DNA of 16,119 nt from a virus (lineage: Duplodnaviria > Heunggongvirae > Uroviricota > Caudoviricetes). Under the pieces are notes generated by a model, which saw nothing but the letters and a program-made list of their open reading frames with translations, was not told the DNA's origin and made no database searches. Both the position numbers and the translations under genes were made by a program. The stretch lies in the IMG/VR virus record IMGVR_UViG_2526164619_000006, positions 1 to 16,119 of that record; one strand, 5' to 3'. Below are positions 10,193 through 16,119 of the stretch, piece after piece; the first letter of the stretch is position 1; each line of letters opens with the position of its first letter.

Positions 10193-10879
10193 ATGACCCC
10201 AATAAAAATATTTATGACTATTGCTGATTTCAAACGGCCTAAATTGGAGCTCCCAAACGGGGCAAACAAACTACTACTGCACTCTTGCTGTGCTCCATGT
10301 TCCGGTGAAGTGATGGAGGCGCTTCAGGCCTCGGGAATCGACTACACCATCTTTTTCTACAACCCGAACATTCATCCTCAGAAAGAGTATTTAATTCGTA
10401 AGGATGAAAATATTCGCTTTGCTGAACAACACGGCGTGCCGTTTATCGATGCTGATTACGACACAGACAACTGGTTTGAACGAGCCAAAGGAATGGAATG
10501 GGAGCCCGAACGAGGGATCCGTTGCACCATGTGTTTTGACATGCGTTTTGAGCGGACAGCGCTGTACGCCGCTGAAAATGGTTTCAGTGTGATCAGCAGT
10601 TCACTGGGCATTTCACGCTGGAAAAATATGCAGCAGGTTAACGAGTGTGGGCGGCGAGCTGTTGCGCATTATCCGGGTATGGTGTACTGGGATTATAACT
10701 GGCGCAAGCAGGGCGGCTCGTCCCGTATGATTGAAATCAGCAAGCGCGAAAAATTCTATCAGCAGGAATATTGTGGCTGTGTGTATTCTCTGCGCGATAC
10801 CAATCTACACCGCAAATCTCAGGGACGCCCTCTTATCAAAATTGGCCAACTCCACTACGGAAAAGAAGAGAAGGAGTGA
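10193..10879 (+). CDS. queH: DUF208 / QueH-like protein (epoxyqueuosine reductase family)
   Basis: Intact 228-aa ORF with [36 protein letters not shown] and EYCGCVYS, which I recognise as the conserved QueH signature motifs. An extended -10-like TGcTACACT lies at 10171..10179. Confidence 0.7.
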
Positions 10880-10989
10880 TTTTATGGATCACCTTTCTGA
10901 TTGATTTCATATTGGCGAGGTGACGTGAGTTAAGTAGAATGGCTGCGTGAACCGCCCCGGGTTTCCTGGAGAGTGTTTTATCTGTGAAC

Positions 10990-11872
<883 letters not shown>

Positions 11873-11876
<4 letters not shown>

Positions 11877-12199
11877 TTTTTCCAGAGGCGGTCGAACTCC
11901 GCCTTCGCAAAATAAGCGGAAGCCTGGCGAAGGATATCGTTACTGCGGCGCAGTTCACGATTTTCACGCTCCAGCTCTTTCAGACGCTGACGTTCAGCGG
12001 TGGTGAGCCCGCCATCACCGCCTCCGGTATCCCGCTCATGCTGGCGTACCCAGACACGCAGAGTCTCCGGTGTACAGCCAATTTTTGGGGCAATGGAACA
12101 AATTGCCGCCCACTGTGAGTCATATTCGCCCTGACTTTCCAGAACCATACGAATCGCCCTCTGACGGACTTCGGGGGAAAAACGAGTATTTTTAGTCAT
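11873..12199 (-). CDS. IS629-like OrfA
   Basis: 108-aa [44 protein letters not shown].. Confidence 0.85.
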
Positions 12200-12425
12200 C
12201 CTGTTTACCTCTTTCTCAGGGAGTTTAGTCTCCAGGATTCCCGGGGCGGTTCAGCGGGTGCTTGAGGCTATCTGTCTCAGGCATGAACACTGAAAGGCAG
12301 ATAGAGAAAAGCCCCAGTTAACATTTCGCGTCCTGCAAGACGCTTAACATTAATCTGAGGCCCAATCTATGTCTCACAAATGTAGATTAGCCTCTTACGT
12401 GCCGAAAGGCAAGGGGAAGCAGGCT

Positions 12426-12581
12426 ATGAAGCAGCAAAAGGCGATGTTAATCGCCCTGATCGTCATCTGTTTAACCGTCATAGTGACGGCACTGGTAACG
12501 AGGAAAGACCTCTGCGAGGTACGAATCCGAACCGGCCAGACGGAGGTCGCTGTCTTCACAGCTTACGAACCTGAGGAGTAA
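12426..12581 (+). CDS. hok: Hok/Gef-family membrane toxin (51 aa)
   Basis: MKQQKAMLIALIVICLTVIVTALVTRKDLCEVRIRTGQTEVAVFTAYEPEE: single transmembrane helix plus the conserved Cys and C-terminal region of Hok/Gef/RelF-type toxins. Track ORF 12369..12581 adds an in-frame upstream extension (possibly mok-like). Confidence 0.8.
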   Translation: MKQQKAMLIALIVICLTVIVTALVTRKDLCEVRIRTGQTEVAVFTAYEPEE

Positions 12582-12651
12582 GAGACCCGGCGAGGGAGAA
12601 AACCCTCGCCACCTCTGATGAATCAGGCATCCTCAACGCACCCGCACTTAA

Positions 12652-12676
12652 CCCGCTTCGGCGGGTTTTGTTTTTT
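12652..12676 (+). terminator. Rho-independent terminator downstream of hok
   Basis: cccgcttcggcggg GC-rich hairpin followed by ttttgtttttt. Confidence 0.6.
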
Positions 12677-12748
12677 CCTGGCATTCTGGTTTACAATTCG
12701 CACGTCAGCCTGAACAACTGGCACCTGCTGCGCCAGCAGAGAAAGACG

Positions 12749-13027
12749 ATGGCGCACAATACCAAATCACACAATTCTGATAATTCAGCTGTCTTTGCCA
12801 GCAGGCACGGGCGGCGTTCCCGCACATTCAAATCTGATTGGTACCATCATTCCCCATGTACTGAAGAACAAGCTGAATGGCTAATTCAGTGCTACCGCAG
12901 ACACGGATACGAGATTAAGAAAGCCCTCAGCCTCGATTATCGTCACTGGATAATCTCCGTCAGGCTTCCTTACTCTGAACGCCCACCGCGTCCGTCCCGC
13001 ACATTCCAGCAACGCATCTGGAGGTAA
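12749..13027 (+). CDS. Small basic hypothetical protein (92 aa)
   Basis: ATG 12749, in frame within track ORF 12668..13027, whose 5' part overlaps the hok terminator. Sits between hok and the DUF968 gene. Confidence 0.4.
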   Translation: MAHNTKSHNSDNSAVFASRHGRRSRTFKSDWYHHSPCTEEQAEWLIQCYRRHGYEIKKALSLDYRHWIISVRLPYSERPPRPSRTFQQRIWR

Positions 13028-13028
13028 C

Positions 13029-14084
13029 GTGCGGGTATTACTTCGACCTGTTCTGGTACCGGAACTCGGGCTGGTGATCGTTAAGCCGGGCTGTGAATCC
13101 ATGCCGGTATTCCACAATACCCGGGTACTGGTGGAGCCGGAACCGAAAAGCATGCGTAATCTGTCGTCCGGGGTCGTTCCTGCCGTTCGCCAGCCGCTGG
13201 CGGAGGATAAATCATTACTGCCATTTTTCAGCGACGAACGAGTGATTCGTGCTGCTGGTGGCGCTGGCGCATTGTCTGACTGGTTACTGCGCCATATTAA
13301 ATCCTGCCAGTGGCCACACGGCGATTATCACCACAGTGAAACCGTCATTCACCGTTATGGTACCGGCGCAATGGTGTTGTGCTGGCACTGCGACAACCAG
13401 CTGCGCGACCAGACCTCCGAATCACTCGGGCAACTTGCTCACCAAAACCTGTCTGCATGGATGATTGACGTCATACGCCATGCAATGAATGGCTCGCAGG
13501 AACGGGAATTATCGCTGGCTGAATTATCCTGGTGGGCGGTCCGCAATCAGGTGGCGGACGCGCTACCGGAAGCGGTATTACGTCGTTCGCTGGGGTTGCG
13601 TGCGGAAAAAATCCGCTCAATGTACCGTGAAAGCGACATCGTACCGGGAGAGCAGATCGCCACCAGCATACTGAAGCAGCGCACAAAAAATCTTGCGCCG
13701 CTGCCTCACGCCCACCAGCAAAACCCGCCACAGGAAAAGACGGTGGTCAGCATTGCCGTTGATCCGGAGTCACCGGCTCAGTATCTCCAGCGCCAGAAAT
13801 CACAACGGGAAGAGATGCCTGTATACACGCGCTGGGTAAAAACGCAGAAATGCATGACGTGTGGCAATCAGGCAGATGATCCGCATCACATCATTGGTCA
13901 TGGACTGGGAGGGATGGGAACAAAGGCTGATGATTTGTTTGTTATTCCGCTGTGCCGTAAATGCCATAGCGAACTACACGCCGGGGTAAAAGATTTTGAA
14001 GAAAAACACGGCAGCCAGCTGTTGTTGCTGATTCGTTTTTTAATGCACGCGAGAAATTCGGGTGTTCTGAAGTGGAAAGCATAA
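13029..14084 (+). CDS. DUF968 (YdfU-like) prophage protein with C-terminal HNH-like Cys/His motif
   Basis: 351-aa ORF, GTG start with GGAGG RBS 4 nt upstream. C-terminal CMTCGNQADDPHHIIGHG..CRKCHSELH. Size and context match my recollection of Qin-prophage YdfU. Confidence 0.65.
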   Translation: MRVLLRPVLVPELGLVIVKPGCESMPVFHNTRVLVEPEPKSMRNLSSGVVPAVRQPLAEDKSLLPFFSDERVIRAAGGAGALSDWLLRHIKSCQWPHGDYHHSETVIHRYGTGAMVLCWHCDNQLRDQTSESLGQLAHQNLSAWMIDVIRHAMNGSQERELSLAELSWWAVRNQVADALPEAVLRRSLGLRAEKIRSMYRESDIVPGEQIATSILKQRTKNLAPLPHAHQQNPPQEKTVVSIAVDPESPAQYLQRQKSQREEMPVYTRWVKTQKCMTCGNQADDPHHIIGHGLGGMGTKADDLFVIPLCRKCHSELHAGVKDFEEKHGSQLLLLIRFLMHARNSGVLKWKA

Positions 14085-14450
14085 ATGACTGAACGCATAG
14101 AATTTGTTTTGCCTTACCCGCCAACGGTGAACACTTACTGGCGACGTCGTGGCAGCACATATTTTGTATCAAAAGTCGGTGAGCGTTATCGCCGTGATGT
14201 GGCGCTTATTGTTCGCCAGCAGCAACTGAAATTAAACCTGTCCGGAAGGCCGGCAATAGAAATTATTGCAGATCCACCGGATAAGCGCCGTCGTGACCTG
14301 GACAATATCCTGAAGGCACCACTGGATGTACTGACGCATGCGGGGCTGCTCATAGACGACGAGCAGTTTGATGAAATTAATATTGTGCGCGGTCAGCTTG
14401 TTCCTGGTGGGCGGTTGGGGATAAAAATCACAGAACTGGAGTACGCATGA
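14085..14450 (+). CDS. rusA: RusA-family Holliday junction resolvase
   Basis: 121 aa with LPYPPTVNTYWRRRG .. DKRRRDLDNILKAPLDVLTHAGLLIDDEQ .. GGRLGIKITELE, matching the RusA pattern. The start overlaps the upstream stop (TAAATG). Confidence 0.85.
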   Translation: MTERIEFVLPYPPTVNTYWRRRGSTYFVSKVGERYRRDVALIVRQQQLKLNLSGRPAIEIIADPPDKRRRDLDNILKAPLDVLTHAGLLIDDEQFDEINIVRGQLVPGGRLGIKITELEYA

Positions 14451-15136
14451 ATAACCAGTATTTACAGTTTGTTCGTGAGCAACTCATGATTGCCACCGCC
14501 GATTTGAGTGGATCAACAAAAGGGCAGCTTGAGGCCTGGCAGGAGAATGCCATGTTTGATACAGGGCGTTACAGGCGTAAAAAAATCCGGTACCGCGATG
14601 AAGTGACTGGAAAAATGATAACGCGGGATAATCCACCAATCCCGGGAAAGCAATCGCTGGCGAAGGGGGCGTCAATTCCTCTCGTCAGTCCGGTTGAGTT
14701 TTCGACATCATCGTGGCGGCGGGCTGTTCTGTCTCTTGAAGAACATTATAAAGCCTGGTTGTTGTGGTGTTACAGCGGGAGTATTTGTTGGGAATATCAG
14801 ATCGCGATAACGCAGTGGGTGTGGAATGAATTTAAAACCCGGTACGGCACCAGAAAAATTGCAGGGAAAACGCAGGAGCGCGTGAAGAAGTTGATCTGGC
14901 TGGCGGCACAGGATGTCAGAGGATGGATTACCGGGTGTGAGGTCTACCAGAGACAGGAGCTTGCCAGACTGTGTGGAGTTAAGCCTGATAACTGGAGCCA
15001 TAATTATGCGAACTACTGGCGTGAGATGTGCGATATTTTTAAGAGTCTCGATAGAGAATCTGTGATTTGCACCGTGAAAATAAGAGCGCAACAAAAAGCG
15101 ACTTTTTCACGACGAGATATTGCAAAAGTCAATTAA
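14447..15136 (+). CDS. Putative late-gene antiterminator (Q-like), assigned mainly by position and size
   Basis: 229-aa Cys-rich ORF immediately after rusA (ATGA overlap), followed by a promoter-like element and terminator. No similarity to lambda Q or the short 82-type Q that I can confirm from memory. Confidence 0.4.
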   Translation: MNNQYLQFVREQLMIATADLSGSTKGQLEAWQENAMFDTGRYRRKKIRYRDEVTGKMITRDNPPIPGKQSLAKGASIPLVSPVEFSTSSWRRAVLSLEEHYKAWLLWCYSGSICWEYQIAITQWVWNEFKTRYGTRKIAGKTQERVKKLIWLAAQDVRGWITGCEVYQRQELARLCGVKPDNWSHNYANYWREMCDIFKSLDRESVICTVKIRAQQKATFSRRDIAKVN

Positions 15137-15148
15137 ATAGCGTACGTT
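15120..15148 (+). promoter_or_regulatory. Candidate sigma70 promoter at the 3' end of the Q-like gene (pR'-like)
   Basis: TTGCAA (15120..15125), 17-bp spacer, TACGTT (15143..15148). Confidence 0.25.
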
Positions 15149-15203
15149 TCGTATAAATCTGATATTTTGCCGATTTTGTACGCGATGGCAAAGTAAGAAA
15201 AAA

Positions 15204-15225
15204 CTGCCGTCAGGCGGTTTTTTTT
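15204..15225 (+). terminator. Candidate rho-independent terminator (tR'-like) downstream of Q-like gene
   Basis: ctgcc-gtca-ggcgg short stem (one G-U pair) followed by 8 T; preceded by an A-run. Confidence 0.4.
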
Positions 15226-15347
15226 ATGCCCAAAATCGCGTCAGTACAGTAAACACGCTGGTGGTTGCGAATACGGGTCTTTCAGCTTGCTGGCTTTTTC
15301 GACAAGAGTTATTGGTATGTCACGTTAACCGGAAAAAGTAAAAAGAC

Positions 15348-15545
15348 ATGCTAAAACAGCAGGATATGACAGAAACCGCCAGAGTGGTGTTTAATGAATT
15401 AAGCGTTACCGAACCGGCGACAGTCGGGGAGATAGCGCAGAATACTTACCTTTCACGCGAACGCTGCCAGTTAATACTGACCCAGCTGGTTATGGCGGGT
15501 CTGGCAGACTATCAGTTCGGTTGTTACAGACGCCTTCCGCAGTGA
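15348..15545 (+). CDS. Small hypothetical protein (65 aa), possible winged-helix DNA-binding
   Basis: Track ORF; segment TVGEIAQNTYLSRERCQLILTQLVMAGL resembles an HTH recognition region. Weak RBS, so the start is uncertain (alternative ATG 15366). Confidence 0.35.
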   Translation: MLKQQDMTETARVVFNELSVTEPATVGEIAQNTYLSRERCQLILTQLVMAGLADYQFGCYRRLPQ

Positions 15546-15559
15546 AGGCTTTTTTATTT
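15532..15559 (+). terminator. Rho-independent terminator
   Basis: gccttc-cgcagt-gaaggc hairpin followed by ttttttattt; it overlaps the stop codon of the 15348..15545 ORF. Confidence 0.55.
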
Positions 15560-15572
15560 GTGGTAAATGGGC

Positions 15573-15603
15573 GGCTGGTGGGTGTTAGGGGCACCCACCA
15601 GCC
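15573..15603. repeat. Perfect 12-bp-stem inverted repeat (hairpin)
   Basis: ggctggtgggtg / ttagggg / cacccaccagcc. No T-tract follows on either strand. Confidence 0.6.
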
Positions 15604-15644
15604 ATCTGCTCATGCGTTGGGTTCACAAGCAAAGCTCAGGCCCA

Positions 15645-15663
15645 CTGCTTTGCGCAAAAGCAG
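15645..15663. promoter_or_regulatory. Palindrome ctgctttgcgcaaaagcag, candidate operator ~35 bp upstream of the methyltransferase start
   Basis: 7-bp arms ctgcttt/aaagcag around a gcgca centre. Confidence 0.35.
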
Positions 15664-15695
15664 AATGAGCCTATCAGAGACAGGCTTAATGATTC

Positions 15696-15920
15696 ATGCT
15701 TAATACTGTAAAAATATCCAGTTGTGAGTTAATCAACGCCGACTGCCTGGAATTTATCTGGTCGTTACCCGAAAATTCTGTTGACCTGATAGTCACGGAC
15801 CCGCCGTACTTTAAAGTGAAGCCTGAGGGCTGGGATAACCAGTGGAAGGGCGACGATGATTACCTGAAGTGGCTGGACCAGTGTCTGGCGCAGTTCTGGC
15901 GGGTGCTGAAACCTGGGTAA
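15696..15920 (+). pseudogene. Beta-class DNA methyltransferase (N6-adenine or N4-cytosine), 5' fragment truncated by IS1
   Basis: Motif IV DPPY (LIVTDPPYF) lies near the N-terminus. The ORF stops at a TAA supplied by the IS1 terminus after 73 native codons. Confidence 0.75.
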
Positions 15921-16119
15921 TGACTCCAACTTACTGATAGTGTTTTATGTTCAGATAATGCCCGATGACCTTGTCATGCAGCTCCACCGATTTTGAGAAC
16001 GACAGTGACTTCCGTCCCAGCCTTGCCAGATGTTGTCTCAGATTCAGATTATGTCGCTCAATGCGCTGAGTGTAACGCTTGCTGATAACGTGCAGCTTTC
16101 CCTTCAGGCGTGATTCATA
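15916..16119 (-). mobile_element. IS1, partial (runs off the window), inverted relative to the IS1 at 8448..9215
   Basis: Starts ggtaatgactccaacttactgatag.. and by eye is identical to the reverse complement of the insB-end of the first IS1 copy. Confidence 0.9.

Follow-up and report, generated by a model that had tools for sequence, protein, structure and literature searches.

How does an intact gene for the last step of queuosine (Q) synthesis come to lie in a prophage that is otherwise broken up by insertion sequences (IS), and what could it offer a host that already has an enzyme for this step? The gene in question, queH, is located on a 16,119-nt stretch of viral DNA (IMG/VR record IMGVR_UViG_2526164619_000006, positions 1 to 16,119; hereafter the window), which shows 100% identity across its full length to contig AKMY01000016.1 of the Shigella flexneri K-315 assembly GCA_000268165.1. 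There it occupies an uninterrupted open reading frame (ORF) of 228 codons plus stop at 10193..10879 on the plus strand, and an earlier note, made from the sequence alone, had already regarded this ORF as a QueH-like gene carried as prophage cargo. QueG, the epoxyqueuosine reductase of E. coli, is cobalamin-dependent (PMC4646009), whereas QueH represents a cobamide-independent alternative to QueG (PMC6461909) and, as a property of the family, uses iron cofactors and not cobalamin (PMC6461909, PMC13443448, PMC10570037). In this study, the ORF was found to encode a functional-looking QueH, and we consider it probable that the gene is a captured, B12-independent backup for the conversion of epoxyqueuosine (oQ) to Q in hosts that are unable to make B12.

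The assignment of the ORF to the QueH family was examined with the profile by which the earlier note had proposed to check its reading, DUF208, now Pfam PF02677 (QueH). The match (E = 1.1e-65) spans profile positions 1-174 of 175 and scores 221.5 bits compared with a curated cut-off of 23.5, far beyond chance, and all four motifs that had been named are present in the translation, i.e., CCAPCS at residues 32-37, YNPNIHP at residues 56-62, RCTMC at residues 110-114, and YCGC at residues 193-196 (228-aa numbering is used throughout). The protein furthermore aligns over residues 27-203 to the structurally characterized QueH of Thermotoga maritima (PDB 7lc5) with an E-value of 7.8e-22.

A family alignment of 65 sequences was then used to inspect the metal-ligand cysteines, comprising the window protein, the T. 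maritima enzyme, and 63 sequences that each represent a 50%-identity cluster and share 35-74% identity with the window protein. Cys32 and Cys33, encoded within the CCAPC codons (10286..10300, plus strand) and equivalent to T. maritima Cys9 and Cys10, are invariant (65/65), as are Cys194 and Cys196 from the YCGC codons (10769..10780, plus strand), which correspond to Cys169 and Cys171. Cys111 and Cys114 from the RCTMC codons (10520..10534, plus strand), the counterparts of Cys87 and Cys90, are kept in 64 of the 65 sequences, with one gap. The remaining cysteine of the CCAPC motif, Cys36, aligns with Asp13; this position is occupied by Cys in 61 sequences and by Asp in four, and the crystallised T. 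maritima enzyme therefore carries the minority variant. All six structural cysteines are thus present, and the seventh position holds the majority Cys, which bears out the earlier assignment also at the level of individual ligands. These six cysteines together with the Cys/Asp13 position are said to bind a [4Fe-4S] cluster and an adjacent iron. Since QueH C9S and D13N mutants are among the PDB entries, the Cys9 and Asp13 positions appear to be mechanistically important.

The predicted fold agrees with the sequence comparison. An AlphaFold2 model of the protein has a mean predicted local distance difference test (pLDDT) value of 92.4 and a predicted template-modelling (TM) score of 0.89. When the model was submitted to Foldseek, the top five matches were all T. 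maritima QueH, with target-normalised TM scores of 0.90-0.92 and root-mean-square deviations of 1.3-2.0 Å, the best superposition reaching 0.92 and 1.3 Å, while the next matches (TtuA) were weaker by about ten orders of magnitude in E-value. Judged from sequence and model, the window ORF would encode a functional-looking QueH that displays every defining feature of the family accessible to computation.

The position of the translation start required separate consideration, as the open frame of queH runs 5' to an ATG at 10193 that precedes a second ATG at 10214. The first ATG is not conserved among the prophage alleles; in one E. coli allele (locus L083) it reads ATT, and an in-frame TAA intervenes between this position and the second ATG. 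Comparison of prophage alleles gave 4-5 non-synonymous versus one synonymous change within codons 1-7, residues 1-7 have pLDDT values below 50 in the structure model, and RefSeq starts QueH at the second ATG with a length of 221 aa. For these reasons we place the coding sequence at 10214..10879 (plus strand, 221 aa plus stop), and the start at 10193 was rejected in view of its unconserved ATG and codons 1-7.

A third possible start, ATG 10313 (Met41), is favored by several annotations. It is directly preceded by the Shine-Dalgarno-like sequence GGTGA, the gene call for queH in K-315 gives a protein of 188 aa, and the PHROGs family phrog_3217 matches only QueH residues 41-228. This family is labelled 'unknown function' and was built from gene calls starting at Met41. 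If Met41 were the true start, the resulting 188-aa protein would be devoid of the CCAPC cysteines and hence of reductase activity, an explanation to which we give next to no credence. Codons 8-40, which bear CCAPC, are constrained even in the most divergent allele (seven synonymous versus one non-synonymous change), and residues 8-40 align with chromosomal homologues and with the crystal structure, including two invariant cysteines, and are modelled at high confidence. A start at Met41 is an artefact of annotation. Pipelines used for phage genomes seem to pick the internal Met after GGTGA, losing the CCAPC cysteines and hiding the QueH function.

We were also interested in whether the gene has been maintained by selection. 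In comparison with the commonest E. coli allele, the window allele differs at 9 of 687 nucleotides, and all nine differences are synonymous, with no non-synonymous change. As only 21% of queH sites are synonymous, the neutral probability of nine out of nine synonymous differences is about 7e-7, or below about 1e-4 by our own estimate when transition bias is allowed for, and dN/dS (the ratio of non-synonymous to synonymous change) is 0.05-0.09 against the more distant prophage alleles. In contrast, the DUF977 gene directly upstream, when compared at the same divergence with its intact E. coli allele, shows ten synonymous and seven non-synonymous changes, namely a nonsense codon and six other amino-acid changes. 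The difference between 0/9 in queH and 7/17 in the DUF977 gene is modestly significant (one-sided Fisher p ~0.03, our own calculation). These substitution patterns point clearly to purifying selection on prophage queH.

The nearest relatives outside prophages are 79-86% identical to the window gene and were found in Erwinia, Providencia, Proteus, Photorhabdus, Gibbsiella, Ewingella, Rahnella, Dickeya, and Sodalis, with 83-86% identity to the chromosomal queH of Erwinia-like bacteria and of Providencia. The Erwinia-like gene is flanked by purL and a two-component sensor-kinase gene, the Providencia gene lies near tmcA and purC, and queH of Photorhabdus, Ewingella, and Gibbsiella is likewise found in ordinary chromosomal settings; in none of the Enterobacterales chromosomal loci fetched (from these five groups) were phage genes observed near queH. 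The prophage gene thus looks as if it was captured from a host chromosome. The statement of the earlier note that enterobacteria use QueG for this step is valid for E. coli but not for the order as a whole, since several Enterobacterales genera carry chromosomal queH. QueG homologues were identified in Photorhabdus, Rahnella, Morganella, Pantoea, Serratia, and Pectobacterium, so that both enzymes occur in the genera Photorhabdus and Rahnella, in different species as sampled.

Within E. coli, queG was detected in 5426 of 5426 complete genomes and queH DNA in 995 of them (~18%). With queG being universal, queH is always the second epoxyqueuosine reductase in this species, and the earlier view of a second, non-orthologous enzyme beside QueG is upheld. 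Coverage of at least 80% of the gene was seen in 985 of the 995 genomes. It is usually present in one copy, 1014 of 1017 places are chromosomal, and every E. coli copy listed carries the label 'epoxyqueuosine reductase QueH' from the Prokaryotic Genome Annotation Pipeline (PGAP).

E. coli and Shigella do not synthesize cobalamin de novo, and according to a classic observation oQ is said to accumulate without B12. A passage of PMC4646009 citing Frey 1988 describes the final step of Q synthesis as cobalamin-dependent in E. coli and Salmonella. For the QueH family it is established that the epoxide of oQ34 is reduced, giving the cyclopentenediol of Q34, in four tRNAs, namely tRNA-Asp, -Asn, -His, and -Tyr (PMC6461909, PMC13443448, PMC10570037), and in Staphylococcus aureus, which carries both QueG and QueH, the two are divergently expressed, possibly reflecting cofactor availability (PMC13443448). 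According to our proposal, queH was taken up from a chromosome elsewhere in the Enterobacterales by a lineage of lambdoid phages that infect E. coli and Shigella, probably along with its own short promoter region. The phage carries queH singly, as accessory cargo behind the replication module. In the lysogen, the predicted enzyme would convert oQ to Q at position 34 of these four tRNAs without cobalamin, and Q synthesis could be completed through the prophage QueH whenever B12 is unavailable to QueG. Given a promoter of its own, prophage queH would thereby uncouple the completion of Q from the B12 supply of the lysogen.

The element around queH is a decayed lambdoid prophage beside potC, as mapped by alignment to intact relatives and by domain scans. 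Its insertion site was deduced from an ABC-transporter permease gene directly outside the integrase gene on the K-315 contig, because an intact relative in E. coli strain 20.1 occupies a matching, potC-adjacent site. Five IS elements break the prophage, namely IS4, two IS3-family elements, IS1, and an IS629-like element. The integrase gene (1-918) is followed by IS4 (939-2360) and by a recE-like exonuclease gene on the minus strand, which would encode about 820 aa when intact and is split into three fragments (2857-3537, 4726-5448, and 7081-7806) by the two IS3-family elements (3512-4759 and 5821-7083). In the latter of these, the transposase reading frame is itself broken. IS1 (8448..9215, plus strand) was delimited by its Pfam IS1 transposase domain and by breakpoints relative to the intact E. 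coli prophage at locus L001, in which position 6856 jumps to 11417. It stands in for about 4.5 kb comprising the repressor, cro-like, and ydaT-like genes, along with the replication genes and the beginning of the DUF1627 gene. With its repressor and replication genes lost to IS1, the prophage is therefore without immunity and replication functions. A second IS1 end is located at the right edge of the window (15916-16119), where it truncates a DNA methyltransferase gene (15696-15920).

Between IS1 and queH lie the DUF1627 gene truncated by IS1 (9242-9598), the product of which is on record from S. flexneri K-315, and the DUF977 (ydaW-like) pseudogene (9614..10039, plus strand), recognized by two Pfam DUF977 fragments and carrying a TGG-to-TAG change at 9830-9832. 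On the other side, the IS629-like IS3-family element (10948..12253, minus strand; rve and HTH_Tnp_1 domains; breakpoints relative to the uninterrupted loci L082 and L018) begins 68 bp after the queH stop codon, and its GCG target is duplicated at 10945-10947 and 12254-12256. The likeness to IS629 refers to its terminal sequence. An Rfam ALIL pseudoknot (120 bits) at 11802-11918 on the minus strand marks the programmed-frameshift site of its transposase, and the frameshift signal of the element therefore looks intact. The element ends at 12253, and the Rfam sok match starts at 12256; the insertion thus hit the exact upstream edge of a hok/sok type I toxin-antitoxin locus (12256..12581, plus strand; sok 121.6 bits at 12256-12431; Pfam HOK_GEF ORF at 12369-12581) and parted it from queH. 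Further downstream follow a DUF968 gene (13029-14084), rusA (14085-14450), and the Q antiterminator gene (14447-15136), and a scan of the 16,119-nt window found no tRNA genes. The location of queH between prophage genes and hok, as given in the earlier note, is consequently correct, with the truncated DUF1627 and nonsense-bearing DUF977 genes upstream and hok/sok behind the IS629-like insertion downstream. Its description of queH as one of the few untouched genes is true insofar as queH is intact, but hok and the DUF968, rusA, and Q antiterminator genes also look intact.

A candidate promoter of queH is the sequence TGCTACACT at 10171..10179 (plus strand), which resembles the extended -10 element TGnTACACT, is situated 35-43 nt 5' of the conserved start at 10214, and occurs only once in the window. 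Its GCTACAC core is present in every prophage allele. The full TGCTACACT is found in the prophage alleles as well, with only the last base missing in L083, which keeps the core although its more distal upstream sequence is unrelated. Moreover, the full TGCTACACT also occurs 40 nt 5' of the Erwinia-like chromosomal queH. We infer that TGCTACACT may be queH's own promoter, captured with the gene, from which queH would be expressed after loss of the early-right promoter. The only terminator-like site on the plus strand (10957-10969) falls inside the IS629-like element, which begins at 10948.

Prophages of the Rac-like, Qin-like, and potC types harbor queH in one and the same slot, invariably behind the DUF977 gene where the replication module ends, in line with the cargo status proposed earlier. 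The neighbors downstream were counted over 86 related loci: hok/sok was found at 54 and a cytosine methyltransferase together with an NgoMIV-family endonuclease at 22, while a Kiwa KwaB-like gene and a DUF1971 gene were each seen at one locus. The slot between the replication module and the Q antiterminator gene is thus a cargo hotspot, which also holds defence and toxin genes. The variable defence cargo downstream of queH, in which the Kiwa KwaB-like gene belongs to a pair, extends over 13265-15275 in L001, 7896-9535 in L085, and 1926-3942 in L075, and is followed at some distance by relBE or hokD.

The exact 228-aa translation is found on at least 1000 contigs and is named QueH in UniRef, and at least 188 IMG/VR prophage contigs carry queH. 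The earlier judgement that such a gene on a prophage is unexpected was therefore overstated, the identical protein being already named QueH in both RefSeq and UniRef. Among phages sensu stricto the picture is different: a tblastn search of 50,697 GenBank phage records returned 25 with a QueH homologue, and the only convincing cultured phage among them is the lambdoid Escherichia phage HannyBb, in which the gene is annotated as 'hypothetical protein'. The other matches comprise faecal fragments lacking annotation, and records that are very large or unannotated and suspected of host DNA. QueH homologues were seen in CAKLQH020000001.1 and CAKLQF020000001.1 (Acinetobacter phage MD-2021a, 328-379 kb) and in OR844989.1 (Staphylococcus phage SA 1306 Kay, 283 kb); these very large 'phage' records may contain host chromosomal DNA. 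An alignment-based scan of viral contigs yielded the 80 close loci and showed that about 26 of 214 viral-contig matches are not of the E. coli type. In our literature search, no paper describing QueH from prophages of E. coli or Shigella came up, and a 2019 survey of viral deazaguanine genes reported no QueA, QueG, or QueH homologues in the phages analysed (PMC6884629). Taken together, the enzyme is an ordinary member of a characterised family that is already named in databases and is common in E. coli prophages. Its carriage by phages is real and, among phages, rare.

Several points weigh against a working B12-independent backup in S. flexneri. Through the replacement of about 4.5 kb by IS1, the native early-right promoter region is absent. 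A strict two-hexamer scan for the sigma-70 consensus gave no plus-strand promoter upstream of queH and did not call TGCTACACT, and by eye no evident Shine-Dalgarno sequence precedes either ATG 10193 or ATG 10214. No NCBIfam family matched the protein at E-values up to 0.01; PGAP names the identical protein QueH in RefSeq despite this miss, presumably by another rule. The synonymous-only divergence may be older than the decay of the prophage and hence need not reflect selection in S. flexneri itself. To our knowledge, no physiological difference in decoding between oQ and Q has been described, and the selective benefit of prophage queH is therefore a conjecture. The loss of the immunity and replication region with its promoter, the missing consensus promoter and Shine-Dalgarno sequence, and the modest significance of the contrast between queH and the DUF977 gene would all suit a silent passenger, the ORF of which has stayed intact through short time or recent recombination while being unexpressed and useless to S. 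flexneri. We regard this explanation as unlikely, though not negligible, and the same holds for its extension that selection operates only in active phages or in other hosts. The nine synonymous and zero non-synonymous changes concern the Shigella allele itself, transcription could be driven by the -10-like motif alone, which is conserved and also found at a chromosomal homologue, and 99% of the E. coli copies are full length, though many of them reside in cryptic Rac- or Qin-like prophages.

Alternatively, the benefit could fall to the phage during the lytic cycle, with early expression of QueH retuning the wobble modification of host tRNAs. Such a role, with expression from the right operon, is compatible with the location of queH within the early-right unit of transcription, after the replication genes and before the Q antiterminator gene, as it is with the alternative occupants of the slot (an NgoMIV-type restriction-modification pair, a Kiwa KwaB-like gene, hok/sok, and relBE) and the retention of queH by HannyBb, a virulent-capable phage. 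We nevertheless consider a lytic or anti-defence function very unlikely, and equally so the gains proposed for it, namely improved late-gene translation or the blunting of nucleases or toxins that recognise the anticodon loops of Q-family tRNAs. QueH has no match to a PADLOC defence family, no defence system is known to us to distinguish oQ from Q, and the fact that queH is conserved in cryptic prophages long dead agrees better with a gain for the lysogen; the idea is speculation resting on position alone. A contribution to a phage 7-deazaguanine DNA-modification (anti-restriction) pathway, which the earlier note had brought up as a possibility, has a negligible chance of being right in our opinion. 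QueH acts after QueA, on tRNA-bound oQ, and we know of no DNA counterpart of its step, which counts against this pathway. It is true that QueH belongs to the queuosine pathway and that DNA-modifying phages contain related pathway genes, but the deazaguanine phages of the 2019 survey were without homologues of QueA, QueG, and QueH (PMC6884629). Moreover, the annotations of the complete HannyBb genome and of the whole strain 20.1 prophage list no dpdA, tgt-like, folE, queD, queE, or queC gene, and neither do those within 7-12 kb of queH in three other E. coli prophages. These negatives rest on annotation, which is sparse for HannyBb and makes that genome weaker evidence by itself, while the four E. 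coli loci were annotated by PGAP.

A captured, B12-independent QueH backup thus remains our preferred explanation, and the question arises of what it would mean for the lysogen. In Shigella, tgt mutants produce less VirF (PMC5041530), and since the Q pathway thereby matters for virulence, a benefit of QueH in this genus is conceivable. HannyBb, a working phage, carries queH too. One may go further and propose that queH is a cofactor-switching tRNA-modification gene spread by temperate phages, which could measurably raise lysogen fitness or the translation of virulence genes in B12-poor niches; we find this extension rather doubtful. The niches in point would be the inflamed gut and the host-cell cytosol, where the prophage would keep tRNAs fully Q-modified, and the extension, if true, would explain a pristine queH in a prophage otherwise wrecked by IS elements. 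QueH would then also be the first phage-encoded enzyme documented, as far as we could find, that is dedicated to the tRNA branch of Q synthesis. An active prophage copy would mean that in about one in five E. coli strains, O157:H7 and ST131 isolates among them, and in some Shigella the tRNA queuosine responds to B12 supply differently from K-12, which is relevant to studies of Q-dependent translation or virulence. Two small points of the record are corrected as well, i.e., the negative result for QueH in viruses in the 2019 survey (PMC6884629) and the 'unknown function' label of the PHROGs family with its missing catalytic N-terminus. The remaining interest of the locus lies in the carriage by phages of a Q enzyme of the tRNA branch, of which we found no description, in the clear purifying selection on prophage queH, and in a simple, testable hypothesis of B12 independence.

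Among known systems, QueG catalyses the same reaction on the same tRNAs as QueH (PMC4646009, PMC10570037), but fold and cofactor are unrelated, and QueG is universal in E. coli whereas QueH is accessory there. Of the DNA-modification systems built on DpdA and preQ0 synthesis genes, no partner gene is annotated in the whole strain 20.1 prophage, in the flanks of queH in three other prophages, or in HannyBb. T. maritima QueH (PDB 7lc5, 7lc7, and 9deu) shares with the window protein the full domain, the six cysteines, the predicted fold, the size, and the single-domain layout, but identity is only about 30%, Asp13 there is replaced by Cys here, and the window gene resides in a prophage and not on a chromosome proper. 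Closer still are the chromosomal queH genes of the Enterobacterales, which have the same length and 79-86% identity and, in the Erwinia-like case, also TGCTACACT; these lie among core metabolic genes, whereas the window copy is mobile and travels on a phage. The closest counterpart is RefSeq WP_000150294.1 from Rac-like, Qin-like, and potC-adjacent lambdoid prophages of E. coli, whose amino-acid sequence is identical over the whole ORF and whose loci show the same slot after the DUF977 gene and the same usual downstream neighbors hok, DUF968, rusA, and Q. The window gene differs from it by 9 synonymous changes, and its prophage by five IS insertions, one of them 68 bp 3' of queH. In its mode of carriage, finally, queH resembles a phage 'moron', being present or absent at a module boundary between otherwise syntenic phages, as morons are.

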